From a virus (taxonomy: Duplodnaviria > Heunggongvirae > Uroviricota > Caudoviricetes), in IMG/VR virus record IMGVR_UViG_3300027896_000028: a DNA stretch of 64,000 bases. One strand, 5' to 3'. This document shows, one piece after another, positions 51,144-63,772 of the stretch (the stretch's first letter is position 1; each line of letters starts with the position of its first letter). The position numbers and the translations under genes were made by a program. Under the pieces are notes generated by a model that ran no database searches, had not been told where the DNA came from, and saw nothing but the letters and a program-made list of their open reading frames with translations.

Positions 51144-51176
51144 AGCCTGTAGATTTCTCTACAGGCTTTTTTATTT
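51144..51176 (+). terminator. rho-independent terminator
   Basis: 10-bp stem AGCCTGTAGA/TCTACAGGCT followed by TTTTTTATTT, immediately after the stop of 50831..51124. Confidence 0.7.
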
Positions 51177-51283
51177 GGTCACCTCGACTAGACTCCCACT
51201 AGCATCTTCAACGTTAGGACCGTTGCGCTCTATTAAATTGAGCTACGAGGTGAAAAAGTGATTTTTAAGACTAAATATTTGAT

Positions 51284-51745
51284 ATGGCAACTATACGTCG
51301 TTCAGAAGAAAAGGTGCTCTCAGAAGCATACACTCAAGTTTTAAACACCGAAGGCTTCTTTGATCGAGTTGCTGCTACCGGAGCGGGTGTTATGCAGACA
51401 GCTAAGAATGTTGGTTCTGGTATTAAAGCTACTGGACAAGCTCTTACTGGTAATCTCGCAGGTGCACAAGCAACTGTTGCTAAAATGTCACCAGCAGACG
51501 ATGCTAAGATGCAATCTATTTTAAAGAATTCAGCTAAAAACTTTCTTACGGACATCTTCAAGCTTAAATTGATACCAGGTGCAGAAAATCTTCAACCACA
51601 GGATGTTGATATTAAGGCATTCATCACTGCTGTTGAACCTTTCCTTCAACAGTTAAAGGCTTCAAAGGCACCGGCTCCAGCCGCACCAGCAACTGGAACA
51701 ACTCCAGCAACTCCGGCCGCACCAGCAACTCCACCGGTAGCTTAA
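51284..51745 (+). CDS. Ala/Pro-rich protein
   Basis: 153 aa with a C-terminal PAAPATGTTPATPAAPATPP low-complexity tail. Confidence 0.5.
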   Translation: MATIRRSEEKVLSEAYTQVLNTEGFFDRVAATGAGVMQTAKNVGSGIKATGQALTGNLAGAQATVAKMSPADDAKMQSILKNSAKNFLTDIFKLKLIPGAENLQPQDVDIKAFITAVEPFLQQLKASKAPAPAAPATGTTPATPAAPATPPVA

Positions 51746-51749
51746 TAAA

Positions 51750-51782
51750 TGGCGGATGAGGAGGGAGTTCCACCCCCGGACG
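51750..51782 (-). other. tRNA 3'-end fragment (T-arm + acceptor 3' strand + CCA; Ser-like)
   Basis: The minus strand reads GGGGG-TGGAACT-CCCTC-CTCATCC-G-CCA. This closely resembles the 3' end of tRNA-Ser at 63778..63871. There is no 5' partner. Confidence 0.35.
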
Positions 51783-51847
51783 TTTTTTAGGCGTCGACTG
51801 TTTAGCAAACAGTTGTGTAAATGTGACATACACGTCTCATCCAAAAA

Positions 51848-51923
51848 TGGTACCCTAGGCCGGTCTTGCACCGGCACTTGACAGATTTTAAGTCTGTTGA
51901 CTCTGCTTTTGGTCTACTAGGGC
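51848..51923 (-). tRNA. tRNA-like gene, anticodon UAA (Leu-type anticodon but class I length; non-canonical D/T loops)
   Basis: 76 nt with an encoded CCA. Acceptor GCCCTAG/CTAGGGT (G1-U72), D-loop AAAAGCAG without GG, anticodon stem ACAGA/TCTGT, loop CUUAAAA, T-arm GCCGG-TGCAAGA-CCGGC, discriminator A. Confidence 0.55.
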
Positions 51924-52012
51924 GTCAAATAAACTCCCCCAGGATTACGCTTTGTTATAGGCCTCAGGGTCACCTGATTATTAGCTTTACAAGAGGCGCT
52001 GGAGGATTAAAA

Positions 52013-52089
52013 TGGTACTCCGGGTAGGACTTGCACCTACAACATTTGAGGTTTGAGCTCAACGACTCTTCTAATTGGTCTACCGGAGC
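52013..52089 (-). tRNA. tRNA-like gene, anticodon CAA (Leu-type anticodon, class I length; non-canonical D/T loops)
   Basis: 77 nt with CCA. Acceptor GCTCCGG/CCGGAGT (G1-U72), anticodon stem TTGAG/CTCAA, loop CUCAAAC, T-arm GTAGG-TGCAAGT-CCTAC, A73. Confidence 0.55.
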
Positions 52090-52090
52090 A

Positions 52091-52600
52091 TTAGTTGCTA
52101 CTAAAATCAGGATCAGTGAAATGAACGTGACCAGTCTTGTAATGTCTACGAGCTATTATCACATTTTCAAGTTCATTGATTGCATTCTTATCCGCTTCAA
52201 CTGTTTTAAATTGCTTGGTCGCTAACGACGTAATCAAGGGTATCGCTTGCTTTTGTACACCCTGTACAAACTCTTGAATTTTATCTAACTCTTCAGGGCT
52301 GAGAGTAGTTGGATCAAGTTTTAAGTGCTCTGATATATCGAGAAGAGCATCACCTAAGAGTCTACTAGTTATATCATCTACAACAATGTGGCTAGTAAAG
52401 AACCCTGCAGCGTCTCTAATCTCACCAGCAGCACAACTAGCGGCTACTTCTTCCTTTTCGTAATACTCACCTTCGATAATATCCTCTATTACTTTAAGAG
52501 TTCTGTCAATCAACATTCGAGGTGTAATATACCGCTGAGCATACTTCATCAGATCTTTACCGTTGTATGCTTCATTTATTAGATGATTGTCCAAGTTCAT
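52091..52600 (-). CDS. hypothetical protein
   Basis: 169 aa, acidic. Confidence 0.5.
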   Translation of the reverse strand: MNLDNHLINEAYNGKDLMKYAQRYITPRMLIDRTLKVIEDIIEGEYYEKEEVAASCAAGEIRDAAGFFTSHIVVDDITSRLLGDALLDISEHLKLDPTTLSPEELDKIQEFVQGVQKQAIPLITSLATKQFKTVEADKNAINELENVIIARRHYKTGHVHFTDPDFSSN

Positions 52601-52619
52601 AATATTATTTAGGCAAAAG

Positions 52620-52675
52620 TGGTCCTCCCAGCGAGACTCACACTCGCAACCTAGCCCTTATCGAGGGGTAGCTCT
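52620..52675 (-). other. tRNA 3' half (class II: anticodon-stem 3' strand, long variable arm, T-arm, acceptor, CCA)
   Basis: The minus strand reads GAGCT-ACCCCTCGATAAGGGCTAGG-GCGAG-TGTGAGT-CTCGC-TGGGAGG-A-CCA. It pairs with the 5' half at 53171..53200 (acceptor CCTCCTG/TGGGAGG and anticodon stem AGCTC/GAGCT). Confidence 0.45.
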
Positions 52676-52688
52676 ATTAAATAATTAT

Positions 52689-53087
52689 ATGAAGACATCT
52701 AATTGTTTAAATTGTAAAGTAACATTTAATTATAATGGCTCTAACTATCATGGTAAGTATTGCTCAAATAAATGCCAAGGAGAGTATAGACAGAAGCAAT
52801 ATCTGATAAATCTCAAATCTGGAGCATTAAACGGTAAGACTATAAATAGACCTAGTGTATATGCTCATTTAGTTCGTGAGAACGGTAATAGATGCGCTAT
52901 ATGCCTTACAGAAGGTATATGGAATGAAAAACCGTTGAGGTTATGGGTAGATCATATAGACGGCAATGCCTCCAATAATACCTGGACTAATTTTAGATTA
53001 ATATGTCCTAACTGTGAATCACAGTTAGATACATGCAGAGCTAAGAATAAAGGTAAGGGCAGAAAAGCCATCGGTATGAAATGGTAG
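52689..53087 (+). CDS. HNH homing endonuclease
   Basis: Track ORF 52587..53087; ATG chosen at MKTSNCLNC. N-terminal Cys4 finger, then NRCAICL...WVDHIDGNASNNTWTNFRLICPNCES (HNH). Its stop overlaps the 3' end of the tRNA at 53082. Confidence 0.7.
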   Translation: MKTSNCLNCKVTFNYNGSNYHGKYCSNKCQGEYRQKQYLINLKSGALNGKTINRPSVYAHLVRENGNRCAICLTEGIWNEKPLRLWVDHIDGNASNNTWTNFRLICPNCESQLDTCRAKNKGKGRKAIGMKW

Positions 53088-53156
53088 TCCTGGCAGGATT
53101 TTCGCCCGCAACCTGAGGGTTATATGCCCACTGCTCTAAAATTGAGCTACAGGACC
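53082..53156 (-). tRNA. tRNA-like gene, anticodon loop CAUAUAA (UAU, Ile-like, if canonical numbering applies)
   Basis: 75 nt with CCA. Acceptor GGTCCTG/CAGGACT (G1-U72), D-arm GCTC-AATTTTA-GAGC (TT in place of GG), T-loop CGAAAAT. A sits at position 33, which is atypical. Confidence 0.45.
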
Positions 53157-53170
53157 GTTAAATTTATAAA

Positions 53171-53200
53171 GAGCTTGCTCTACAATTGAGCTACAGGAGG
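53171..53200 (-). other. tRNA 5' half (acceptor 5' strand, D-arm, anticodon-stem 5' strand)
   Basis: The minus strand reads CCTCCTG-TA-GCTC-AATTGTA-GAGC-A-AGCTC. It is followed directly by an intact tRNA and is complementary to the 3' half at 52620..52675. Confidence 0.4.
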
Positions 53201-53203
53201 AAA

Positions 53204-53279
53204 TGGTAGACACGACAGGTCTTGCACCCGCACTAAGCCGGTCCTAAGCCGACTGCCTCTGCTTTTGGGCTACGTGTCC
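53204..53279 (-). tRNA. tRNA-like gene, anticodon UAG (Leu-type anticodon, class I length)
   Basis: 76 nt with CCA. Acceptor GGACACG/CGTGTCT (G1-U72), D-loop AAAAGCAGA, anticodon stem GTCGG/CCGGC, loop CUUAGGA, T-loop TGCAAGA, A73. Confidence 0.55.
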
Positions 53280-53286
53280 ATTAAAA

Positions 53287-53362
53287 TGGCAGCCTGTGAA
53301 GGACTTGCACCCTCAATTACCGTTCCGAAGACGGTAGTGATATCTAATTTCACCAACAGGCC
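53287..53362 (-). tRNA. tRNA-Arg (anticodon UCG), non-canonical D/T loops
   Basis: 76 nt with CCA. Acceptor GGCCTGT/ACAGGCT (G1-U72), D-arm GTGA-AATTAGATA-TCAC, anticodon stem ACCGT/ACGGT, loop CUUCGGA, T-arm GAGGG-TGCAAGT-CCTTC, G73. Confidence 0.6.
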
Positions 53363-53441
53363 ATGGAGCTGAATGTCGGTAATGCTCCGACTTATCTAGT
53401 TTACGAAACTAGTGCATCACTTTATATGCTTATCCAGCAAA

Positions 53442-54077
53442 TCAACTCTTTATATATTTAGAAGGAGGAAACTCTTCGTGGTAGTGATTTACACCACTTG
53501 TAAATAAACTCTTGTATGTATCATTCTTACCTAAACTAAGCAACCACTTTTCAGATGAATAATAATCAGTTGTATCACAGGTTGGCAACTGTTTGATATA
53601 CGAACTCTTTGCCCACCAAAAATTACCTGAGTAGTGTAATCCAAAACCAGGTGCATCCTGTTTATTAACACCAACTGTATTCATCTCCTCCAAAGCTTTA
53701 AAACACTCTTTCCACTCTTCTATAAGAAAGTACTCCATATAAGCTATCCAGCTATTAACAGGTACACTATCACATTTAGTAACACCTTTCGAGTGGATAT
53801 AAAGTATATTAGCTTCTGATTCTAAGTTTCGGCAAAACTCTCTAATGTAGTTAGTTGTTAACGATTCATTAGAAAACATAACCGGTGACAAACTGATAAC
53901 CTCTATCTTCGGATGCACTTTAAACTTCGGTGCATTTGACATATCACCGTTCAAGGAAACATATATCTTATCTACTGCGTCAATGAGACCACTCGATACG
54001 ATTTTATTATACGTCTTCAGGAAGCGTTCGTGGTAATCGTTTAAAGTTGATGAATGATAAAATATGTAACTTTGCAT
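53442..54077 (-). CDS. hypothetical protein
   Basis: 211 aa. Confidence 0.5.
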   Translation of the reverse strand: MQSYIFYHSSTLNDYHERFLKTYNKIVSSGLIDAVDKIYVSLNGDMSNAPKFKVHPKIEVISLSPVMFSNESLTTNYIREFCRNLESEANILYIHSKGVTKCDSVPVNSWIAYMEYFLIEEWKECFKALEEMNTVGVNKQDAPGFGLHYSGNFWWAKSSYIKQLPTCDTTDYYSSEKWLLSLGKNDTYKSLFTSGVNHYHEEFPPSKYIKS

Positions 54078-54131
54078 ATGGTTATTTTATAACATCTCTA
54101 TTTGTTATCAACTTTAATAAATGGCGGGAAA

Positions 54132-54392
54132 TTAATCAGGTTCAATGAATGATAAATCGTTTTGAAACCAAGATTCACCTTCATGATGTTTACAGCACTT
54201 ATTTGAGCAATAACCCCACCAATCTCCTTCATATTGAGGATGATCTTTGGTATCCCAATTACAGCAAACATGGATGATAGGCCAACCACAATCTTTGCAA
54301 TGTATACCTTCTGAAATTTCTATCGTCTCTGTGCTAGTTTTATATTTCAACTTATGCATAAATGGTGGGAATGATAGGATTTGCACATACAC
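54132..54392 (-). CDS. Cys/His-rich small protein
   Basis: 86 aa with CKDCGW...HVCCNW...CSNKCCKHHEG. Confidence 0.4.
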   Translation of the reverse strand: MYVQILSFPPFMHKLKYKTSTETIEISEGIHCKDCGWPIIHVCCNWDTKDHPQYEGDWWGYCSNKCCKHHEGESWFQNDLSFIEPD

Positions 54393-54446
54393 TGTTTACC
54401 TCCTCAAGGTAACGTCTCCTGCTAGTTGGACTACATTCCCGTAAAT

Positions 54447-54523
54447 TGGTGCGCTCGGAGGTAGTTGCAACCTCACCATATCCGGTTAAGAGCCGGGTGC
54501 CGGTCTACTGTAGCTTCAGGCGC
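54447..54523 (-). tRNA. tRNA-like element (anticodon loop CUCUUAA, CUU Lys-like); poor D-arm
   Basis: Ends in ACCA. T-arm GAGGT-TGCAACT-ACCTC, anticodon stem CCGG/CCGG, acceptor with one mismatch. The D-arm cannot be folded canonically. Confidence 0.3.
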
Positions 54524-54529
54524 ATTAAA

Positions 54530-54952
54530 TTATAACGACGATATACTCTGCGATAAGGCTGATTGTTTAAATGCTTCCATCTCTTCTTTGCTTGGTCGCA
54601 CTTCGACTCTTTCAGTCTTAAATTCTAGGTTAATAGACATATCAACATCAGAACCATCCAATGCTTTGATAGTCTTACCTTTAACAGGTCTCTCGTAAAC
54701 ACATTGCATATAGAAGACTTTGCCCATCTTCTTTGGTTTGATATCATCTAGTTGTTTACCTATCTCGAGCTGCTCTGTAAACCACTTATCACCGTCACGC
54801 ATTTCTTTCGGGCGCCCATTAGAAAAGTGAGCATTGAAGTATTCGAGGAGTTCTTCCTTTGTACCGACTAATATTTCAGCTTTTTGTATCATGGAATCAA
54901 TATAACAGATAAAGATATAAATGCAACTGAAGTTTAGAAATGGTCGCAGCAC
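54530..54952 (-). CDS. hypothetical protein
   Basis: 140 aa. GTG start, N-terminal hydrophobic segment. Confidence 0.45.
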   Translation of the reverse strand: MLRPFLNFSCIYIFICYIDSMIQKAEILVGTKEELLEYFNAHFSNGRPKEMRDGDKWFTEQLEIGKQLDDIKPKKMGKVFYMQCVYERPVKGKTIKALDGSDVDMSINLEFKTERVEVRPSKEEMEAFKQSALSQSISSL

Positions 54953-55015
54953 CCGGTGCTACCCCGGACTGAACTGGCTTATGAAACCTGCTCGATCGTT
55001 GGATCTACTGCGAAA

Positions 55016-55090
55016 TGGAGCCACCAGAAGGATATGCACCTTCCTGTCTGACTTACCAAGTCAGTTCATCGCTGTCTATGAGTTGGCGGC
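55016..55090 (-). tRNA. tRNA-Thr (anticodon GGU), non-canonical D/T loops
   Basis: 75 nt with CCA. Acceptor GCCGCCA/TGGTGGC, D-arm TCAT-AGACAGCG-ATGA, anticodon stem CTGAC/GTCAG, loop UUGGUAA, T-arm GAAGG-TGCATAT-CCTTC, U73. Confidence 0.6.
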
Positions 55091-55097
55091 GTTGTGA

Positions 55098-55499
55098 TTA
55101 ACAATTAATCAAATCAATATTCTGATCACCTGCAATGTTTACCAACCCGTTATCACCTGCGATGTTAAACAACTGACATGAATCACCAGGTGTTGGAGTA
55201 GGTGTTGGGGTAGGTGTGATCTCTGTCGGTGTCGGAGTCGGCAAAATCTCTGTCGGTGTTGGTGTGATCTCTGTCGGTGTCGGAGTCGGCAAAATCTCTG
55301 TCGGTGTTGGTGTGGTACCTGGTGTGGGTGGAACGTACAAGGTATGGCCTACTGTAGTAGCAGATGTGTTAGATATCTTAGGTTGTATACCTCTTGCTCT
55401 TCCACCAGCTCGCACTGATGCCGCTGCAGCTATTCTCGCCTCTGAACGCGTAGCTCTTGCTATTCTAATACTATCAAATTGTGATGGTGACTGTGCCAT
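55098..55499 (-). CDS. Pro/Thr-repeat protein
   Basis: 133 aa with TPTPTEILPTPTPTEITP tandem repeats. Encoded by a perfect 2 x 48-bp DNA tandem duplication. Confidence 0.5.
   Translation of the reverse strand: MAQSPSQFDSIRIARATRSEARIAAAASVRAGGRARGIQPKISNTSATTVGHTLYVPPTPGTTPTPTEILPTPTPTEITPTPTEILPTPTPTEITPTPTPTPTPGDSCQLFNIAGDNGLVNIAGDQNIDLINC
55213..55308. repeat. perfect 48-bp tandem duplication (2 copies)
   Basis: ggtgtgatctctgtcggtgtcggagtcggcaaaatctctgtcggtgtt occurs twice, back to back. Confidence 0.8.
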
Positions 55500-55518
55500 A
55501 CATATATTTATCTAAAAC

Positions 55519-55592
55519 TGGAGCTCAGTATTGGATTTGATCCGTCGTTTCAGTCTTACCAAGACCGTGTTCTGCTATTGAACTAACAAGGC
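55519..55592 (-). other. chimeric tRNA-like element (Thr-GGU-like 5' two-thirds + unrelated T-arm/acceptor 3' end with CCA)
   Basis: The 5' part is GCCTTGT-TA-GTTC-AATAGCA-GAAC-A-CGGTC-UUGGUAA-GACTG. The 3' part GGATCAAATCCAATACTGAGC-T-CCA does not pair with the 5' acceptor strand. Confidence 0.35.
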
Positions 55593-55595
55593 AAA

Positions 55596-55624
55596 TGGAG
55601 CTCAATATTGGATTTGCACCAATG
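55596..55624 (-). other. tRNA 3'-end fragment (T-arm ATTGG-TGCAAAT-CCAAT + acceptor 3' strand ATTGAGC + U + CCA)
   Basis: A direct repeat of the 3' end of the chimera. There is no 5' partner adjacent. Confidence 0.35.
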
Positions 55625-55655
55625 AATAATCGTTTTGAGTTCATTAAATAATTAT

Positions 55656-56435
55656 ATGACACAAAAAACAGGTATTTATACTAATTGTAAGCAATGTAAT
55701 AAGTCTATATATGTTACAAGAGGTGCAGCGAAGAAACGTCAAAATCATTTTTGTTCGCAGACATGCTCAGCAAAATACAATAACGCGCATAGAGCACCTA
55801 TGACAAGCAAGCAGAAGCAACAGAGATCAGATACCCTACGCAAATTTCATGGATTGCCTACACGAATATTGACACAACCAATTATGCCACTCGAACATCG
55901 ACTTAGTATATCTCGTGCTCACAGGGAAGGTAAGATTATGCAAAAGGAATATACTTGTAAGGTGTGCAATCAACTATTCATTTCACATAGGCAAGGCAAG
56001 GCATATTTTCCTACTGTTTGTTCAGATGAATGTCGCGGGCAACAATTAATTAAAAACGCGCACGGATGTAGATACATCTATAAAAACACCCATATGCAAT
56101 CTAGCTGGGAAGTTAGTATTGCAAAATTTCTTGATGAACAAGGTATAGAGTGGGTACGCCCTAAGTGTATACCTTACAAATATCTAGATGGAAAGATGAG
56201 AAATTATTTTGCTGATTTTTTTATACCATCTCTTAATTTATATGTAGATCCTAAAAATCCGATAATTGCCCGCATTCAAAAGGATAAGCTTCTTATTTTA
56301 GAAAAACAGATTGATCTTATCTATGGTACGGTGGATTTTCTCAAACAAGAAATACTTAAACGGGTTAAGAAGATGGAGCTAGGTGTCGGTGCTGCCCCGA
56401 CTAACTTCCGCTTTGCAGGCGGTGCCGTTTGCTGA
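55656..56435 (+). CDS. putative homing endonuclease (N-terminal Zn fingers + C-terminal Vsr/DUF559-like PD-(D/E)xK domain)
   Basis: Track ORF 55635..56435 (TTG start); ATG at MTQKTGIY chosen. It shares the upstream leader TTAAATAATTATATG with the HNH gene at 52689. The motif YFADFFIP...LYVDPKNP resembles the Vsr-like nuclease core. The C-terminal 20 codons run antisense through a tRNA. Confidence 0.55.
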   Translation: MTQKTGIYTNCKQCNKSIYVTRGAAKKRQNHFCSQTCSAKYNNAHRAPMTSKQKQQRSDTLRKFHGLPTRILTQPIMPLEHRLSISRAHREGKIMQKEYTCKVCNQLFISHRQGKAYFPTVCSDECRGQQLIKNAHGCRYIYKNTHMQSSWEVSIAKFLDEQGIEWVRPKCIPYKYLDGKMRNYFADFFIPSLNLYVDPKNPIIARIQKDKLLILEKQIDLIYGTVDFLKQEILKRVKKMELGVGAAPTNFRFAGGAVC

Positions 56436-56449
56436 TTCGGTAACCTAGC
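56374..56449 (-). tRNA. tRNA-Cys (anticodon GCA), non-canonical T-loop
   Basis: 76 nt with CCA. Acceptor GCTAGGT/ACCTAGC (perfect), U8 A9, anticodon stem CCGC/GCGG, loop CUGCAAA, T-arm GTCGG-GGCAGCA-CCGAC, U73. Confidence 0.5.
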
Positions 56450-56550
56450 TTAAGACGAGTCCCTTAGCTTCTTGGGTAACTGAGCATTAAATGGGGTGAC
56501 CGGTGGGTAATTACTTCGATTTTATCACCCCATCAGATATAAGTATTAAT

Positions 56551-57282
56551 ATGAAGACAACAGTAAGCTGTCCGATGTGTAAAACGGCTTTCAAACAACT
56601 AACTAATAGCCATTTTAAGCGGTGTCATAATACTACAATACACGATATAAAAATACAATTCCCTAATATTCAATTAAAATCGGATGCAACATATTCATTA
56701 GAATGCAAACAAATGGTATTAAAACGCCATTTAGCTGTTAAATTTAAAAATACAGAAAAGAAACAACGAGTTATTGAATATAATTCTAATCCTAAATGCT
56801 GTCAACAATGCTCAAAACCTATTTCATATACGAATAAGCGTTATGCTGATTTTTGTTCACATAAATGTGCAGCTGTTTTTAATAAATCACATCTCAGTTT
56901 TTCAGTTAAACGTAGTAAGGCTGAGATGTATATGGAACGGTTACTAACGAAATCTTTTCCTCTTATACCCATTGAAACAAACAACAGAAGTGTGCTCTCA
57001 ACTAAATTTGAAATTGATATATTATTACCAACGATTAAACTAGCTATTGAAATAAATGGGCCGACTCATTTTATACCAGTTCATGGTGATGAGATTCTTA
57101 AAAAAATACAGAATAGAGATTTACAGAAGGTATTAGAACTCCAGAAATTAAATTATACTTTTTTTGTTATTGATATAAGTCAGTTTACAAATTTTGAAAA
57201 GACTGTGAAATATCTTGATATTATATTCATTAAACAAATTAAGCCTTTTATTGAGCAGTATCAAAAAGAAATGGTCAGGTAG
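56551..57282 (+). CDS. putative homing endonuclease (Zn finger + Vsr/DUF559-like PD-(D/E)xK domain), paralog of 55656..56435
   Basis: Track ORF 56503..57282 (GTG start); the ATG at MKTTVSCPMCK has the same ATGAAGACA context as the HNH gene at 52689. The motif FEIDILLP...LAIEINGPTHF is a D...(E/Q)xK-like core. Its stop overlaps the tRNA at 57272. Confidence 0.55.
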   Translation: MKTTVSCPMCKTAFKQLTNSHFKRCHNTTIHDIKIQFPNIQLKSDATYSLECKQMVLKRHLAVKFKNTEKKQRVIEYNSNPKCCQQCSKPISYTNKRYADFCSHKCAAVFNKSHLSFSVKRSKAEMYMERLLTKSFPLIPIETNNRSVLSTKFEIDILLPTIKLAIEINGPTHFIPVHGDEILKKIQNRDLQKVLELQKLNYTFFVIDISQFTNFEKTVKYLDIIFIKQIKPFIEQYQKEMVR

Positions 57283-57348
57283 GTGGGATTTGCACCCACA
57301 CAGTTCCCTTCACAGAGGAAGATGCTAACTATTACATCACGTACCTGA
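57272..57348 (-). tRNA. tRNA-like gene with enlarged or irregular anticodon loop (anticodon unresolved)
   Basis: 77 nt ending in CCA. Acceptor TCAGGTA/TACCTGA, D-arm GATG...CATC, T-arm GTGGG-TGCAAAT-CCCAC. The anticodon region TTCC-UCUGUGAAG-GGAA folds only with an 8-9-nt loop. Confidence 0.4.
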
Positions 57349-57354
57349 ATAATC

Positions 57355-57423
57355 TGGAGCCAAGCCGGACATTGCAGTCCGCATCCTCGTTTACAAAACG
57401 AGCGTAGGTAGCTTACGCAAGGC
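57355..57423 (-). tRNA. tRNA-Thr-like (anticodon UGU), 5' region shortened (possible pseudo-tRNA)
   Basis: 69 nt with CCA. Perfect anticodon stem CTCGT/ACGAG with loop UUUGUAA, T-arm CGGAC-TGCAATG-GTCCG. The acceptor has two U-U mismatches and a 3-bp D-stem. Confidence 0.4.
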
Positions 57424-57427
57424 AAAA

Positions 57428-57502
57428 TGGAGCCCCATGAAAGATTTGCGCTTTCCTTTCCGGATTACAAAGCCGGTGCATCGCTGTCTATGCTTATAGG
57501 GC
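57428..57502 (-). tRNA. tRNA-Thr (anticodon UGU), non-canonical D/T loops
   Basis: 75 nt with CCA. Acceptor GCCCTAT/ATGGGGC, D-arm GCAT-AGACAGCG-ATGC, anticodon stem CCGG(C)/(U)CCGG, loop UUUGUAA, T-arm GAAAG-CGCAAAT-CTTTC, U73. Confidence 0.55.
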
Positions 57503-57539
57503 GTAAAATATGCAGATGTTTTGCTAACACTTGCATAAA

Positions 57540-57613
57540 TGGTAGGGGATAGAGGTAACGCTCCTCTGTCCTGTCGGTGTAAGCGACTCGCTCTGCTTTT
57601 GAGCTAACCCCCC
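57540..57613 (-). tRNA. tRNA-Val (anticodon UAC), non-canonical D/T loops
   Basis: 74 nt with CCA. Acceptor GGGGGGT/ATCCCCT (G1-U72), D-arm GCTC-AAAAGCA-GAGC, anticodon loop CUUACAC, T-arm AGAGG-AGCGTTA-CCTCT, A73. Confidence 0.55.
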
Positions 57614-57620
57614 ATGAAAA

Positions 57621-57923
57621 TTAAACTTGGCCTGGTCCCGTATTCTGCATCTCACAATCCTCATCTCCACCTACTTCTTCTTTTGCAGACCATTTTTCAT
57701 CGGCTTCGACTGTGTGCATGCCAATAAGTTCTTTAGCAAGGTGCAATATATCCTCTAAAACATACACCGGGTCTTGGCGTTCATCATCACTATTGAGATG
57801 ATCTTCGATTAAAGAAATAATTGCTTTACCAATCTGAACCTCACGCTTCTCTTCAGGATTAGACATATTGGTTTCATCATGCTCTACGTACAATCTATAA
57901 ATTTTGTCGGAATCGTTTGTCAT
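57621..57923 (-). CDS. acidic hypothetical protein
   Basis: 100 aa, Asp/Glu-rich. Confidence 0.45.
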   Translation of the reverse strand: MTNDSDKIYRLYVEHDETNMSNPEEKREVQIGKAIISLIEDHLNSDDERQDPVYVLEDILHLAKELIGMHTVEADEKWSAKEEVGGDEDCEMQNTGPGQV

Positions 57924-57943
57924 ACTAATATTTATGTATTTTA

Positions 57944-58609
57944 TTACAACTTTAAGGCTTTATCAACTTCTGATTTTTGTTTTTTACTGACACCCGCTTT
58001 ATGCATCACTTCATTACGCTTCATAGTGTCCATTATATTATCATCTATATGAATGACATCTGCAGCGGTTTTTGTTATCGCATTTGGTATTGCGGTCTTA
58101 CTAGTTACTACTGTTGTATCAATATTACACGTTTGTTTAAGATCCTCTATACACGATAAGAGCTCAGAAGTAAACACTTCGTCTGTCACAATATACAAGT
58201 GAGATATGTCATTAAATTCATTGTCTCTATCGCGAACCCAATCATGTAGGCATACAATATTTGAATGTGAGTTAACACGTACAGTATTCAATATTTTGTT
58301 CATTGCCTTGTATGGGTTTGAACTATGCTTAATTTCATGAACAGAGCGTACTTCGTTATCATATATTACAACGGTTACATCAGTGTTCAACTCTCCTATC
58401 TTATATGAAACCCACTGTAACTGAGTCATTATTGCCCAACCGTTTGATCTAGTTCGATATGACAGTGAAGCACTGGATGTATCAACAGCAATAACCAGTC
58501 TCGATTTCTTAGCTTTCGGTTTAACAAATTTCTTACCTGGTTCAAGCTTGAGCTCGGGTTGTATTGTTTGATAGGCTTCGACTAGAAGCGATGTATCCTT
58601 ATTGCTCAT
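57944..58609 (-). CDS. VWA-like domain protein (putative)
   Basis: 221 aa. LVIAVDTSSAS resembles a MIDAS DxSxS motif. Confidence 0.45.
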   Translation of the reverse strand: MSNKDTSLLVEAYQTIQPELKLEPGKKFVKPKAKKSRLVIAVDTSSASLSYRTRSNGWAIMTQLQWVSYKIGELNTDVTVVIYDNEVRSVHEIKHSSNPYKAMNKILNTVRVNSHSNIVCLHDWVRDRDNEFNDISHLYIVTDEVFTSELLSCIEDLKQTCNIDTTVVTSKTAIPNAITKTAADVIHIDDNIMDTMKRNEVMHKAGVSKKQKSEVDKALKL

Positions 58610-59421
58610 AAATTCATTGCATCAATTACGGTACCCATATCTTCCGGTTTAACACCAGATGAAATTGCATCGTGTTGCTTCTTAGATAGCTCTTTACCGT
58701 TTATATAGTAACCATGATGCAAATCGACCCGCTTAAATTCTACTGCTGGTCCATCCATACGGTGGTTTATAGTACAACCAGCATCTTTATAGTATAGTGT
58801 TACGAATCCTTTATCATCTTTACACAATTTTTCACCAGAAACTTTGTCAGTATAACCTACTATGTTTATAACATCTGTCATCTTTTTCCAACCTGTTACA
58901 AAGTATATACGAGTTTGACCTGCACCCCGTGATGTAAATTCCTTACGGGCATATATAAATGGTTCGCCATCTATTGTACCTGGTATATAAAACGATAATA
59001 GGTATCCTTTAGGTCCTTTTATCGGGTCGTAAGTCTCACCTTTATATAGAGAAGGTACAGTGTAAACAATACCTTGATACTCAACTTTTTGATCTATTGT
59101 AGATCTATTTACCTTAAATTTATTGAGATTATTGCGTGTTACAGAGCTCAGAGGTGCAGTATCAAGTGGAAATATCCAACCCGGTGAATGCTTTACAACT
59201 TTAGATTTACCAACAGTTAAGTTGATATCGTTATCAAAGATTTTGTCGCTGTACTTTGCCCACTTAGCTTCAGTAGCAGTACCCTCATACAACATTACCA
59301 GATTCTTATTGTCCGTCTTGTTTGCGCATCTCATTGACATACGGTAAATTCTTAACTTTTCTTTTAGCAGGGTTTCTGATACGCTTTGTAGGTGTTTCTT
59401 GATCCTCTTCCTGAGGTGCAC
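58606..59421 (-). CDS. hypothetical protein
   Basis: 271 aa, basic N-terminus. Confidence 0.5.
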   Translation of the reverse strand: MHLRKRIKKHLQSVSETLLKEKLRIYRMSMRCANKTDNKNLVMLYEGTATEAKWAKYSDKIFDNDINLTVGKSKVVKHSPGWIFPLDTAPLSSVTRNNLNKFKVNRSTIDQKVEYQGIVYTVPSLYKGETYDPIKGPKGYLLSFYIPGTIDGEPFIYARKEFTSRGAGQTRIYFVTGWKKMTDVINIVGYTDKVSGEKLCKDDKGFVTLYYKDAGCTINHRMDGPAVEFKRVDLHHGYYINGKELSKKQHDAISSGVKPEDMGTVIDAMNL

Positions 59422-59487
59422 GATGGGGCACAGGCATTGCTGCTATATTGTTAATGTGCTGCTGTATCTTATTAATATCCATCATAA

Positions 59488-60870
59488 TTATTTGGTACCT
59501 TTATCTAAAGATGCTTGAGCACGTGTCCAATCCTTTGACATAAACGATTTAAACGGCTCAACGTTCTTATTATCAAGTATAGTCTTAAATAGCGTAGCAG
59601 TTATCATATTATCCACTCTATTAAGTTTACTAAAGAAAACGTTCATCCATTCTTCATCAAGTTCGTGTAGGATACCGCACATCTCAGCGGCAACTTTTAT
59701 CTGTGTTTTCTTATCAGCTCCCATCAGTCTCTTTTGAAGCTCTGATGTGCAGCGTGAAAGAACACCATGGAGTTGATCAGTGCTAACACCTTCCGTCTCC
59801 TTGGTGTTCTTTTTCAAACCGATATGCTTCTTAGGGTTAGATACTAACTTATCCCAATCGAAATGACGCATATAACGCAAGTGCGCCATAAATCTACGAG
59901 ACCATGCTGGGCCACATGACTCACCAGCAGCTATTTCAATCTCTGTCATCGGATCGTAACTCAACTTACCATTACTCGCTTTGAAATCTTTATAGATTTC
60001 CTCCATATCTTCACTCAATGTAACAAACGAGCGAGGACATGCAAACTGATTATCGAAAGAAGGTTTCTCGTAGAAATTCTTTTCTGGATCAATTTCAACA
60101 AACTCACAGATGTATTCACTAATATTATTCATTCGTGCCCACTTTAGCCAAGTTGGAGCATCTGCAACCATTATACCAGCTTTAAAACGACTGGTTAAAG
60201 CGATCGGAAGTGGTTCATTGAAATCTGCACCTAAGTTACCTGCAGCAACAATACCCCAATCATCATTCATCTTCAAGTTACCAATCTTGCGATCTAATAC
60301 TAACTGAAATAGCGCCTTTTGTACAGCTTGGTGACCTTGATTTATTTCATCAAGGAAAAGCATACCAGATGAAGAAGGTATACCCATGATATATGCATAA
60401 AGCTGTGGCTTCATCTCGAGATATTCCTTCCTGCTTCTGATATCAATAATACCCGTAATGTCAGAAGGTTCTAACATCGCTGTGCGAATATCCCAAAAGA
60501 AGAAGTAATCTTTATAGAGGTTGTTATCGATAATATGACGCTGTTCATCAACACTTAATAATGCCCAGTCAACTACTTTACGCTTACCACCAAGTTTCTG
60601 ATCGACTATTCTTGCTAAATCGTTAGCTGATTCTTTAATCACAGCAGTTTTACCAAGACCAGGATCACCATAAACAAGCACAGATCTATGAGTCTTAAAA
60701 CCTCTGACAATAGAACGAACGGTTTGTTCAATTGAACGCTCAACTAGGTTCTTTTCCGCATGAGAGTGTGTAGGTGTATTAGTATCTGGAAACTCAGAGA
60801 TATCGATAGCATCTTCCTCTGCATATTCACAGAGTTTTCTAAAAGTATCGATTGTTTTGAAGGCTCTCAT
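59488..60870 (-). CDS. AAA+ ATPase (MoxR/AAA_5-like)
   Basis: 460 aa. Walker A VLVYGDPGLGKTAV, Walker B MLFLDEINQG and a sensor AAGN. Confidence 0.65.
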   Translation of the reverse strand: MRAFKTIDTFRKLCEYAEEDAIDISEFPDTNTPTHSHAEKNLVERSIEQTVRSIVRGFKTHRSVLVYGDPGLGKTAVIKESANDLARIVDQKLGGKRKVVDWALLSVDEQRHIIDNNLYKDYFFFWDIRTAMLEPSDITGIIDIRSRKEYLEMKPQLYAYIMGIPSSSGMLFLDEINQGHQAVQKALFQLVLDRKIGNLKMNDDWGIVAAGNLGADFNEPLPIALTSRFKAGIMVADAPTWLKWARMNNISEYICEFVEIDPEKNFYEKPSFDNQFACPRSFVTLSEDMEEIYKDFKASNGKLSYDPMTEIEIAAGESCGPAWSRRFMAHLRYMRHFDWDKLVSNPKKHIGLKKNTKETEGVSTDQLHGVLSRCTSELQKRLMGADKKTQIKVAAEMCGILHELDEEWMNVFFSKLNRVDNMITATLFKTILDNKNVEPFKSFMSKDWTRAQASLDKGTK

Positions 60871-60874
60871 ATAT

Positions 60875-62254
60875 TTATTTAATGTCGATAAGAAAGGTTT
60901 TGAGTCTAGTTTCAGGTTGTAGAGTTTTAATACCTTCCGCTGTGGTAACTAATGCAAAGTTCTTTGTCGGTGGTGGTAATAGATTAATAGGTGGATGCTC
61001 GACAAAACCGTCAGTTATATAAACAACTGCAGTAGCCTGCTTTTCTAGTTTATTCTTTCTAAGATATTCAGCTACCGACCCCATTGTAGTTCCACCACTC
61101 CTGAGATTGTTTAAAATAGTTTGTAACAACGTTGGAGCAGTACCTTTAGTTACGTTGATATGATAGTAAGCAACGTCATGCCACAACACTATGCATATGT
61201 TAGCTTGAGGGTAATGCCTGAAGACGTTAAGAGTTTCTGTGACAAAAGCTGAGAGTTCTTGTTGACCGATAGAACCTGAGGTATCGATAGCGATCACAAT
61301 GGGCGGTAAAATATCTTCATTGTGCATCTTTGGTAATATAACACCAGCTGCAAGAGGTCTCTTAGCAAATTTTCGCTGATCGTATCTTGCAACCGTCTGC
61401 ACTATAATCTGTTTCAACACAACTCGCCAATCAACGCGAGGTTTATGGATATCCATGATGTGTTCTCTCATGCCGCCTTCACCAGTACCTCGCTGTTTAC
61501 CCCTTCCAGCATCTTCATCATTTTTAGATGATTGGCTAGCTTGGCTAACCGCACGTCTAATATCATCAGCAGATTTATTACCAATTTCACCATCAACAAT
61601 AACGATCGGGGTACCGTCATTTGTTTTTCCTGGTGTACCCAGGACAATATCGAGAGGTGCAACTGCATTAAACTTCATTTGCTTATCAAGAATTTTATAC
61701 AAATATTCTGCACTCTTATTGCTAACGTCTATAGATACTGCCTTACCTGATGCTGTTAGCTTTGAATTTAACACAACCTTAGCTGTAGCACCATTGTTAC
61801 TCATTACAGGTATACAGCCCGCAGATGGCAGTTTAAAACCATTGCGGAGTAGGTCTCGGTTCATAATGAAATCTGTAGCAATATTCCACAACTGGTGGTG
61901 ACGACCCTTCTTGCGATCAGATGTCATTGTTGCAATGTGAGATGCTTCATGAGCAAGTACACCTATGCATTCGTCAAAATCTAAAAATTCAAGAGCGAAT
62001 CGAGGATTTATATAAATGTTACCTTGGGTATCAACTGCCATTGTTGGTAAACTATAGGTAGTTACTACGTTAAGCTTCTGTAGAAAGTGACCTAGAAATG
62101 GTGCATGTTTATAGATTTGAAACTTAGAACCCTTTAATCTAAGTCTAAACTTATCTTCCTGTTCTGGTGTAAGTGGTACCGACATCTCGTCGTAATTAAG
62201 CTCACGCTTAGAAGCTTCAGTCAAAATATTCGCAACTGTGTCGTTAAATTTCAC
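60875..62254 (-). CDS. zinc-metallopeptidase (HExxH) + VWA domain protein (DUF2201-like partner of MoxR ATPases)
   Basis: 459 aa. VLAHEASHIATM is an HExxH motif. The C-terminal VIAIDTSGSIGQQEL is a VWA MIDAS motif. GTG start. The antisense ORF 61455..61901 is rejected. Confidence 0.65.
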   Translation of the reverse strand: MKFNDTVANILTEASKRELNYDEMSVPLTPEQEDKFRLRLKGSKFQIYKHAPFLGHFLQKLNVVTTYSLPTMAVDTQGNIYINPRFALEFLDFDECIGVLAHEASHIATMTSDRKKGRHHQLWNIATDFIMNRDLLRNGFKLPSAGCIPVMSNNGATAKVVLNSKLTASGKAVSIDVSNKSAEYLYKILDKQMKFNAVAPLDIVLGTPGKTNDGTPIVIVDGEIGNKSADDIRRAVSQASQSSKNDEDAGRGKQRGTGEGGMREHIMDIHKPRVDWRVVLKQIIVQTVARYDQRKFAKRPLAAGVILPKMHNEDILPPIVIAIDTSGSIGQQELSAFVTETLNVFRHYPQANICIVLWHDVAYYHINVTKGTAPTLLQTILNNLRSGGTTMGSVAEYLRKNKLEKQATAVVYITDGFVEHPPINLLPPPTKNFALVTTAEGIKTLQPETRLKTFLIDIK

Positions 62255-62277
62255 ACTATTATTTATGTCTTCTTAAA

Positions 62278-62353
62278 TGGCGCTTGTATCTGAAGTTGCA
62301 TCAGAAATTTAACCTTCGCAGGGTTATGTGATATCTATTTTCACCATACAAGC
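62278..62353 (-). tRNA. tRNA-Arg (anticodon GCG), non-canonical D/T loops
   Basis: 76 nt with CCA. Perfect acceptor GCTTGTA/TACAAGC, D-arm GTGA-AAATAGATA-TCAC, anticodon stem TAACC/GGTTA, loop CUGCGAA, T-arm TCTGA-TGCAACT-TCAGA, G73. Confidence 0.6.
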
Positions 62354-62387
62354 AAACCGGCGCTCTATCTAACTGAGCTACTCGAGC
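62354..62387 (-). other. tRNA 5' half fused upstream of tRNA-Arg(GCG)
   Basis: The minus strand reads GCTCGAG-TA-GCTC-AGTTAGATA-GAGC-G-CCGGT-UU and then runs directly into the next tRNA. There is no 3' partner adjacent. Confidence 0.35.
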
Positions 62388-62388
62388 A

Positions 62389-62580
62389 TTAAATTTTTTC
62401 GAAGTTATCAAGAGTATCCCATTCAAGCAACCTCTTGTGTGCACTATACTCTATTACAAGACCTCTAGATTCACGTTTAACAACACGGACCGTGTAACCA
62501 AAGCCTTTATGTTGAAGGACGTCACCAACACCCCACTCTTTAGGGGACTGTGTTTGTTCATAAAAGACCTTGAAAGTCAT
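62389..62580 (-). CDS. hypothetical protein
   Basis: 63 aa. Confidence 0.4.
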   Translation of the reverse strand: MTFKVFYEQTQSPKEWGVGDVLQHKGFGYTVRVVKRESRGLVIEYSAHKRLLEWDTLDNFEKI

Positions 62581-62599
62581 ATTATTATTTAGTCTTAAA

Positions 62600-62674
62600 T
62601 GGTAGCGCGTAGGGGTTACGCTCCCCTGCCTTAGCCTTGAAAGGGCTCTATCCTAACTATTAGACGAACACGCC
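62600..62674 (-). tRNA. tRNA-Glu (anticodon UUC), non-canonical D/T loops
   Basis: 75 nt with CCA. Acceptor GGCGTGT/ACGCGCT (G1-U72), anticodon stem AGCC/GGCT, loop CUUUCAA, T-arm AGGGG-AGCGTAA-CCCCT, A73. Confidence 0.55.
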
Positions 62675-62675
62675 A

Positions 62676-62999
62676 TTAAATTTGTCGAGCTTGGCAAGCT
62701 GGGCACCTGCGAAGCAGCTCAGTGTAGTTAGCTTTAACATCGTACCAACCTACATGATTAAAATTTTCTAAAACACTGCAATCTAGGGGTGTCTTATGCT
62801 TCATATTGCGATTCAACATCTCTTCTGCAATCTCATCGTGTCGAGTTTGCAATGTCTTTGTATCGACTAAGCCAGTAGAAGCATACTTACCAAGTGCAAC
62901 ACCTTTTTTGATAGAACCAATAAACATATGATGTTCTACGTGCTCACCAAGCAGGTGTTTATTGCACATTAATTTAGGATTTACATGCCATTGTCTCAT
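62676..62999 (-). CDS. pyrimidine-dimer DNA glycosylase (T4 endonuclease V / DenV-like)
   Basis: 107 aa. LMCNKHLLGEHVEHHMFIGSIKKGV aligns with the DenV motif [24 protein letters not shown]. Confidence 0.55.
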   Translation of the reverse strand: MRQWHVNPKLMCNKHLLGEHVEHHMFIGSIKKGVALGKYASTGLVDTKTLQTRHDEIAEEMLNRNMKHKTPLDCSVLENFNHVGWYDVKANYTELLRRCPACQARQI

Positions 63000-63040
63000 A
63001 GATTTAATGTATAAAATCTATGAAGTAAAATCAATGCATT

Positions 63041-63499
63041 TTACCCGTTTTGATTCTTTAGGTTGGAGATGTAGTCACCGTAAGAGTTATAATCAGTAAA
63101 GATTCTTGTCCAAATAAAGAGGTTGTTCTTTCCTCCGTTAACAGTCTCTTTAATACCAATTACATGGAAAGGTGGTTGACGTTTTTGTACTTCTACACCG
63201 TAAATGAGGGTAGTAGGTTTACTAGGTCCCTCTGTCTTAAATCTGATAGATGCTTTCAATTCGAAAATTGCATCTTGTCCTCGGCTAGCTTTCCACGCTC
63301 GAAAATATCGACGCATAATAGCTCGCTCGTTAGGCTTCAACTTCTTCTTATCTGATAAGAACTGTTTAGTTACCTTTTCACGATCACCGGCACCTCGGTC
63401 ATATCGAAGAGCTACCTTGGATGGTCTATGAGCCTCTGCTAGAATAAACGACTTAAAGCTTTTCATTTTTAACCTCTGGTTTAGCAGCTGCATCAGCAA
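63041..63499 (-). CDS. hypothetical basic protein
   Basis: 152 aa. Confidence 0.45.
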   Translation of the reverse strand: MLMQLLNQRLKMKSFKSFILAEAHRPSKVALRYDRGAGDREKVTKQFLSDKKKLKPNERAIMRRYFRAWKASRGQDAIFELKASIRFKTEGPSKPTTLIYGVEVQKRQPPFHVIGIKETVNGGKNNLFIWTRIFTDYNSYGDYISNLKNQNG

Positions 63500-63650
63500 A
63501 AGCGTCTTGGGTATCTACAGCTGTATCAACACCTAGAGCATGTTTAAAATCCTCTTCAGAATTAAACGTCAACACCGGGATATCTTGGACATCATAAGTG
63601 CTTTCAAGCATCAGTTGACCATCTGCGGCTTTTTTCAATTTCTTGCTCAT
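63453..63650 (-). CDS. hypothetical protein
   Basis: 65 aa, overlapping the previous ORF by 47 nt. Confidence 0.35.
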   Translation of the reverse strand: MSKKLKKAADGQLMLESTYDVQDIPVLTFNSEEDFKHALGVDTAVDTQDAFADAAAKPEVKNEKL

Positions 63651-63697
63651 ATTATTATTTATATGATATTGACAAATTAACCAATAGTCAATAAAAA

Positions 63698-63772
63698 TGG
63701 TCCACTAGGTTGGTATCGCACCAACGTCCACGGGGTTTCAATCCGTTGCTAATCTATCTCAGCTACTAGTGG
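63698..63772 (-). tRNA. tRNA-Phe (anticodon GAA), non-canonical T-loop
   Basis: 75 nt with CCA. Perfect acceptor CCACTAG/CTAGTGG, U8 A9, anticodon loop UUGAAAC, T-arm GTTGG-TGCGATA-CCAAC, A73. Confidence 0.65.

Follow-up and report, generated by a model that had tools for sequence, protein, structure and literature searches.

A long-variable-arm tRNA(UAU) gene of an uncultured phage, split around an intact tRNA(UAU) and an antisense HNH endonuclease gene, is probably the remnant of a homing-type capture

Here we describe a transfer RNA (tRNA) gene that lies in two halves around a second, complete tRNA gene and an antisense gene of an HNH endonuclease. It was found in a stretch of 64,000 nucleotides (nt) from an uncultured tailed phage (IMG/VR record IMGVR_UViG_3300027896_000028), and this whole stretch is called the window below. 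Together the halves make up a single tRNA(UAU) gene with a long variable arm, and the split is at the 3' edge of its anticodon loop. We refer to the outer split tRNA as X and to the inner intact tRNA as Y. The explanation that we consider probable is the capture of a homing-type cassette, composed of the HNH gene and a tRNA, at a break in the cognate tRNA gene; X would then be a remnant and Y its replacement.

The 5' half of X (53164..53200, minus strand) consists of the acceptor strand CCTCCTG, TA, the D arm GCTC-AATTGTA-GAGC, A, the anticodon-stem strand AGCTC and the complete anticodon loop TTTATAA with the anticodon UAU. The 3' half (52620..52674, minus strand) starts with GAGCT and continues through the long variable arm ACCCCTCGATAAGGGCT (ACCCC-TCGATAA-GGGCT), AGGTT, the T arm GCGAG-TGTGAGT-CTCGC and the acceptor strand TGGGAGG to the discriminator A and CCA. 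A preliminary description had called the acceptor and anticodon stems of the halves complementary, and indeed the acceptor strands pair at 7/7 positions (two of them G-U) and the strands AGCTC and GAGCT at 5/5. Joined, the halves would give a tRNA of 92 nt with the junction ...AGCTCTTTATAA|GAGCTACCCC... (joined sequence AGCTCTTTATAAGAGCTACCCC). The same description read the sequence of the halves correctly and separated them by about 495 bp; the loop belongs to the 5' half, so that the break falls at 53164|53163 and 52675|52674 and the insert measures 489 bp (53163..52675). The 5' half is the sole candidate partner near the 3' half. Partners with matching acceptor, D arm and anticodon-stem strand are expected 0.435 times per 64 kb on both strands, and about 0.003 times within 1 kb on the same strand. 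No intact copy of X was found elsewhere in the window.

That X is a class II tRNA split around an intact tRNA and an antisense HNH gene, as first described, is borne out both by this sequence and by 13 intact long-arm tRNA(UAU) genes of other phages. Joined X is collinear with them end to end and keeps all their invariant columns. Its 5' half aligns to columns 1-40 of these genes, and a covariance model built from the 13 genes with X left out recognizes 52674..52620 as variable arm, T arm and acceptor (26.1 bits). The best identity of X to the intact family is 64% (locus L180; L-numbers denote the compared phage loci), and its acceptor strand CCTCCTG compares with CCTTCTG and CCCTCTG. Intact family tRNAs, 91-103 nt long, are present in many phage loci together with a homologue of the window's HNH gene. 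In each, the UAU anticodon arm is canonical (loop YTTATAN) and a second hairpin, its loop 7 nt long, comes next; 5-6 nt then lead to a normal T arm, and the discriminator is A73. The TTATA of the anticodon loop and the GAT that centres the variable-arm loop are invariant and common to X. Covariation backs all five helices: 88.7% of pairs are formed, compared with 61% in shuffles, and double changes occur in 23/26 pairs. The T loop of X, TGTGAGT, has the odd style of the phage's own tRNAs (TGCAAGT, TGGGAGT), which argues for X as a formerly resident gene of this phage.

The insert starts, in the direction of X, with a 7-nt spacer ATTTAAC (53157..53163, minus strand) between the broken loop and Y. 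Y itself (53082..53156, minus strand) is a complete class I tRNA with the anticodon loop CATATAA (UAU), the T loop CGAAAAT and an encoded CCA. Then comes the HNH gene of 132 amino acids (52689..53087, plus strand), recognized as an open reading frame (ORF) and by a PHROG match and lying antisense to the tRNA array. A 14-nt 5' leader (52675..52688, plus strand; TATTAAATAATTAT on the plus and ATAATTATTTAATA on the minus strand) separates the HNH start codon from the 3' half of X. Thus only 21 nt (7 + 14) are outside tRNA and ORF. There is no integrase gene and no duplicated tRNA 3' end in the insert, and its content is limited to tRNA and HNH ORF. Earlier, Y had been placed correctly between the halves and the HNH gene only by its 3' part; the whole ORF lies inside.

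Y was missed by ARAGORN; it scores 48.4 bits with the Rfam tRNA model and 39.6 bits with model R1. It is the only UAU tRNA in the window, and Y and the HNH gene are each present there in single copy. The end codons and stop of the HNH gene, TGG TAG, are the reverse complement of the 3' end of Y, CTACCA. The protein matches the PHROG HNH endonuclease family at 7e-19 and has 102 homologues. D88 H89, N97, N101, C106-P-N-C109 and N-terminal cysteine pairs (zinc finger) are invariant across 30 homologues, the window's protein included. Y has two peculiarities, A at position 33 where U is usual and a U-U mismatch at 28-42 of the anticodon stem. If the HNH enzyme recognizes a TTATAA loop, A33 could make Y immune; alternatively, A33 could be an escape from a host anticodon nuclease.

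Outside the window, a tRNA(UAU) and an antisense HNH gene with the same stop overlap (ACTACCATTT) occur without X halves in L087-L089, L094 and L252/L253. Given this recurrence, Y and the HNH gene are a conserved unit. Y is homologous to the HNH-adjoining tRNA(UAU) of L087, L252 and L093, with which it shares the acceptor GTCCTG/CAGGAC and the 3' end. tRNAs adjoin the HNH gene in 79/85 family loci. One family member resides in a crAss-like tRNA array, another in the tRNA region of Tequintavirus HdH2 (T5-like), where it directly abuts tRNA-Thr. The family is found almost only in tRNA arrays. The HNH stop codon of L093 is abutted by a tRNA of 111 nt (1908-2018; Rfam 52.9 bits), and L111 has one at the corresponding position. 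In this tRNA, about 38 nt are inserted between the anticodon-stem strands GTGAA and TTCAT, perhaps a mini-intron or the scar left by an earlier insertion.

Both edges of the insert have counterparts in these relatives. The 14-nt leader before the HNH gene is conserved in the HNH clade (window compared with L087, L252, L254, L255 and L256; minus strand of the relatives CATATAATTATTTATTAGACC). The spacer with the preceding CTCTTTATAA resembles a tRNA leader motif of relatives (GTTCTTTATAAATTTAAT in L252, GCTCTTTAAC in L254), the 14-nt core of which occurs a single time in the window at 0 mismatches. The spacer may mark a microhomology junction. Immediately before the HNH start codon, L087, L252, L254, L255 and L256 have the conserved leader TATTTATTAGACC and then a hairpin with the conserved base AGACC...GGTCT and a variable inner stem and loop, which may be a regulatory or recognition element of the HNH clade. 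In the window, the 3' half of X sits where relatives have this hairpin. No support was obtained for the idea that the hairpin is a decayed 3' half of X.

The nested layout is not confined to the window. Of the 85 hits of a permissive split-tRNA scan, most were paralogues matching one another; cases were kept if, on reading by eye, truncated pieces flanked an HNH gene. Nesting of the same kind, a split tRNA around an intact tRNA and an HNH gene, is present at at least 4 other loci. L090 consists of a 5' piece, tRNA(UAU), an antisense HNH gene and a 3' piece, with an outer tRNA apparently of the same long-arm UAU family; its acceptor TATCTCG/CGAGATA pairs 7/7, its variable arm is mispaired and its T arm is cut to 9 nt. 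In L156/L227, a 29-nt 5' piece of a Gly-type tRNA is directly followed by tRNA-Gly(GCC) and the HNH gene; of the rest of the outer tRNA, nothing but T arm and acceptor comes after them, its anticodon loop being deleted. In L215, tRNA-Gly(GCC) is split within the anticodon by an HNH gene and an intact tRNA-Gly(GCC). L110, L115 and L116 have a tRNA split at the anticodon-loop end by a spacer, tRNA-Arg(UCU) and the HNH gene, and L145 is a decayed form of this layout. L201 harbors scrambled duplicate tRNA pieces around its HNH gene. The breaks of all nested cases fall within the anticodon stem-loop, and the inner tRNA is an isoacceptor of the outer one in 4/5. As a sign of site-specific cleavage, the position of the breaks in the five loci is only suggestive. 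The idea of the preliminary description that the gene was broken by an insertion associated with a homing endonuclease is thus the best supported one, given that Y and HNH occur elsewhere without flanking halves and that the nesting recurs with other tRNAs; the activity of the enzyme and its homing are presumed.

L110 and L116 are crAss-like contigs from 3300045988. Their homology (L116 1285-1926) begins exactly at the first base of the outer tRNA, and the upstream flank is unrelated. ACAGA was considered as a target-site duplication in L116 and rejected, as it is part of the conserved HNH C-terminus. An exact-join look-up for the split tRNA of L116 returned nothing new.

We infer a nuclease activity, its target, a route of repair and the loss of X as an expressed, working tRNA, and the likely course of events is the following. 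Before the insertion, X would have been a resident tRNA(UAU) gene with a long variable arm and in working order. Its cleavage in or near the anticodon stem-loop would be due to the HNH enzyme, or to a close relative of it present in a co-infection, and the break would be repaired by capture of Y and the HNH gene via short, imperfect homologies. The first of them might be found between the X loop TTTATAA and the AT-rich leader of Y, since CTC-TTTATAA resembles GTTCTTTATAAATTTAAT, which precedes tRNAs of the L252 group. The second might be found between TTTATAA-GA(GC) of X and TATTTAWTAGA (TATTTATAAGACC) of the HNH leader. X would be left as two dead halves, with the presumed target site destroyed by the insertion. 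Y would supply an AUA-reading tRNA, so that the insertion would cost the phage little.

Homing endonuclease genes in phage tRNA arrays are already known, and the nested split tRNA is a new variant of that association. Known systems resemble it in part. In phage Aeh1, nrdA is split in two by the free-standing homing endonuclease gene mobE, and the two protein pieces come together again and stay functional. The splitting of a host gene by a free-standing homing endonuclease gene is the shared feature, but the split gene of the window encodes a tRNA and its rescue most likely comes from the second intact tRNA in the insert. The group I intron in the anticodon loop of tRNA-Leu(UAA) is a classic case. 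Group I tRNA introns, like those of L093, L095 and L255, share the insertion in the anticodon loop region and the associated homing endonuclease; the window's insert, in contrast, is without a ribozyme core, has its ORF antisense, contains a whole tRNA and follows the last loop nucleotide, not lying within or beside the anticodon. F-TflI, F-TflII and F-TflIV are HNH enzymes encoded among the tRNA genes of T5. The likeness here is one of fold class and location, HNH genes among phage tRNA genes, and we know of no split tRNA reported for these enzymes. They are mentioned together with SegB of T4 (PMC2330249). SegB is a GIY-YIG homing endonuclease of the T4 tRNA cluster that cuts tRNA genes and spreads neighbouring tRNAs (PMC2330249, PMC13096335). 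Like the gene in the window, segB is a free-standing nuclease gene in a phage tRNA array with its stop codon abutting a tRNA. It differs by its fold, which is not HNH, by its position on the same strand as the tRNAs and by its target, the T-loop; a nested split tRNA with an inner isoacceptor is not described for it (PMC2330249, PMC13096335).

Several findings weigh against the capture of a cassette. No uninterrupted X, i.e. no empty site, was found at this position in any retrievable genome, no close relative was recovered, and neither the 3' half nor the joined anticodon arm, searched as DNA patterns, had a match in viral contigs. The Pfam matches of the HNH protein, HNH_3 (21.1 bits) and HNH (16.1 bits), are under curated cutoffs. 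The HNH-adjoining tRNA(UAU) of relatives has a normal loop, and hence the loop alone cannot be the whole target. X in the window has no decay and every helix is perfect, which points either to a recent event or to some constraint. A similar problem is posed by L110 and L116. Their outer halves differ at 2/75 positions (97% identical) and so change at the same slow rate as the working inner tRNA. Spacer and leader differ at 12/76 (p = 0.009 against outer halves; spacer 87.5% identical), and the HNH ORF at 56/417 (p = 0.006; 86.6% identical), with 34/55 ungapped differences at third codon positions. Repeated homing into conserved intact alleles with co-conversion of flanks could account for this conservation, as could a role of the halves in HNH expression; that they serve a real split-tRNA function is quite improbable.

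An alternative that we hold to be unlikely is local rearrangement in the absence of horizontal homing. X would already have been next to Y and the HNH gene in this phage, and either an HNH-made break or recombination of X with Y through their similar 5' halves would have reshuffled them to the nested order; the process would resemble SegB-driven segmental amplification followed by deletion. X and Y are identical at 22/23 bases in positions 3-25 (TCCTGTAGCTCAATT-K-TAGAGCA), which would favour such an exchange, and the scrambled duplicate pieces in L201 speak for this alternative too. In T4, SegB drives local amplification of tRNA+segB segments and their rearrangement through microhomology (PMC13096335). 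Nevertheless, Y and the HNH gene are single-copy in the window, and at least 2 extra steps are needed to obtain the nested order. The leader before Y matches the tRNA leader of the L087/L252/L254 group and recurs nowhere in the window, and the breaks in four other loci are likewise within the anticodon stem-loop.

A second alternative, rather improbable in our opinion, is that X still functions. Its RNA halves would be spliced through an unrecognised intron or ligated after processing, or else, once Y had been excised from the transcript, pair through the 12 complementary base pairs of the stems and then be ligated or work as a two-piece tRNA. If true, X would correspond, in a virus of bacteria, to the split tRNAs of archaea and be the first outside Archaea, made and maintained by a homing-endonuclease cassette. 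The intact helices of X fit with function, and so does the conservation of the outer halves in L110 and L116, which equals that of the working inner tRNA and exceeds that of spacer and HNH gene. Also, 5/7 acceptor pairs differ between X of the window and the outer tRNA of L090, although all 7/7 are paired in each. A promoter-like TTTAAA-16-TATAAT is situated at 52684-52711 (minus strand), just before the 3' half, and coincides in part with the HNH start codon of the opposite strand, but such matches are at chance frequency in this AT-rich region, and promoter and terminator scans gave nothing above chance level.

The form of this alternative already raised in the preliminary description, an unusually large intervening sequence in the anticodon loop, is not supported. 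Rfam gave no match to a group I or group II intron, neither in 52400-53450 at E<=10 nor, at gathering score, anywhere in the window. The group I core, which had been suggested as something to look for, was therefore not seen, while the same search recovered group I introns in L093 (71.4 bits), L095 (70.7 bits) and L255 (30.2 bits) as positive controls. The insert leaves no space for a ribozyme core and has its ORF in antisense orientation, and the folding of the antisense-HNH RNA does not stand out from that of shuffles (z = -1.34); a group I or II intron was rejected on these grounds. The control introns, all in tRNA arrays of phages with close relatives of the HNH gene, lie at 3042-3227 in L093, at 347-539 in L095 and at 563-768 in L255, there within a tRNA at about 520-810. 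The L255 intron follows CTCAT of a tRNA(CAU) whose 3' end abuts an antisense HNH gene, an arrangement that recalls collaborative homing of an intron and a free-standing endonuclease.

The split tRNAs of Nanoarchaeum equitans and other archaea have halves with extra complementary leaders and are joined by a splicing endonuclease and a ligase. X is like them in the break at or near the anticodon loop and in the complementary acceptor and anticodon stems. The extra leaders are not seen in the window: by reading of the junctions, ATTTAAC and ATAATTATTTAATA are unpaired, a 3-nt bulge and 4-bp helix are absent, and no extra complementarity is present beside the halves. We know of no tRNA splicing endonuclease from bacteria, and no joining machinery is evident for X. 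RNase P and RNase Z would excise the complete inner tRNA. Colicin D inactivates tRNA-Arg by a nick between positions 38 and 39, and the break in X corresponds to the same site. Finally, the outer copies are truncated or mispaired in L090, L156 and L145, and such decayed copies in relatives argue for remnants.

It is also conceivable, with very little probability, that the 3' piece belongs to a tRNA-Ile(GAU) of class I whose break follows the D arm, at nt 26. The hairpin ACCCC-TCGATAA-GGGCT would be its anticodon arm, and AGCTC-TTTATAA would be no more than the leader of Y. ARAGORN accepts a 76-nt tRNA-Ile(gat) join as readily as the 92-nt class II join. TAGAGC is present at both edges (53182..53177 and 52676..52671), and relatives have tRNA leaders similar to the 19 nt that follow the D arm. 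The hairpin with AGGTT has the look of anticodon arm plus variable loop in a tRNA-Ile(GAU), and the hairpin itself resembles the anticodon arm of E. coli tRNA-Ile. However, the hairpin has C at position 33, whereas class I tRNA-Ile(GAU) genes in about 250 loci have U33 in every one. The variable-arm loops of the long-arm UAU family have A or C at this position, as in X (TCGATAA). The 13 intact relatives carry the hairpin as a variable arm after a canonical UAU arm, and their model agrees. The perfect pairing of AGCTC with GAGCT would be left unexplained, and after the comparison with intact relatives this origin was rejected. Although tRNA arrays are rich in similar sequences and the permissive scan gave many false pairs of paralogues, a chance meeting of two unrelated, merely complementary tRNA fragments is next to impossible, with about 0.003 partners expected within 1 kb, both halves matching one intact family and the layout recurring.

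The family to which X belongs deserves a comment of its own. Besides X, it comprises tRNAs of L094, L095, L100, L113, L121, L172, L176, L177, L178, L180, L183, L192, L204 and L256, and our literature searches found no description of such long-arm UAU phage tRNAs. Their second hairpin resembles an anticodon arm, and its central GAT is an Ile anticodon. This GAU loop might be a mimic for recognition by a synthetase. A73 is an element of leucine identity, and the tRNAs could be Leu- or Ser-charged missense tRNAs similar to nev-tRNAs. Nematode nev-tRNA(UAU) (PMC3333845) and bacterial allo-tRNAs (PMC5389517) likewise combine a long variable arm with a non-Leu/Ser anticodon, UAU in the intact relatives of X. 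In contrast to them, the phage family has an ordinary 7/5 arrangement of acceptor and T-stem, not 8/4 or 9/3, and a variable arm with a 7-nt loop and the invariant central GAU. The family is conserved among phages and combines the UAU anticodon with an anticodon-like GAU hairpin where the variable loop would be; how its members are charged could be relevant to the decoding of AUA.

The surroundings of X are a dense tRNA array on the minus strand, where ARAGORN found 10 tRNAs and Rfam 13 at gathering score; an E-value search and our own model add more. tRNA(UAG) (53279..53204, minus strand) is followed by TTT and then by the 5' half of X. The tRNAs at 51176-63772 (minus strand) are atypical, with T loops TGCAAGT, TGCAAGA, TGGGAGT or AGCGTTA as opposed to TTCRANY, and with D loops lacking GG. 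Four tRNAs of 76-78 nt with the Leu anticodons UAA, CAA, UAG and GAG have no long variable arm. At least 8 tRNAs were found by Rfam or our own model and missed by ARAGORN (53085-53156, 53367-53438, 54447-54523, 54941-55012, 55016-55090, 55522-55592, 57431-57502, 57543-57613, 62603-62674). A perfect 48-bp tandem repeat in 2.1 copies is located at 55213-55314 within a G/T-rich stretch, and there the ENA contig (L084) apparently differs from the window, as the BLAST match is split in two, one piece being 99.86% identical.

All four public contigs of this phage are 100% identical at the split-tRNA region; the sequence is also on JGI 3300003852 Ga0031655_10000127, ENA ERZ27247850 and Logan SRR5272259. 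Megablast and blastn searches of the phage collection gave no similar genome, and exact-protein look-ups returned only the 100% identical contigs. The 169-aa gene flanking the split tRNA has 0 homologues found, the neighbour gene DUF8361 has relatives only at <=41% identity, and a metagenome scan for the HNH clade recovered mostly distant members.

The question addressed by these findings is how a homing endonuclease gene lands within a tRNA gene without cost to the phage. If the capture of a cassette is the right explanation, the nuclease gene brings along an intact tRNA for the very codon that the interrupted gene reads. The UAU and Gly cases in unrelated phages suggest a general rule, that of a selfish cassette carrying a spare part. 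The capture of such cassettes also predicts where the HNH enzymes cut, and part of the duplication, mosaicism and pseudo-tRNA debris in phage tRNA clusters would find its explanation in the rule.

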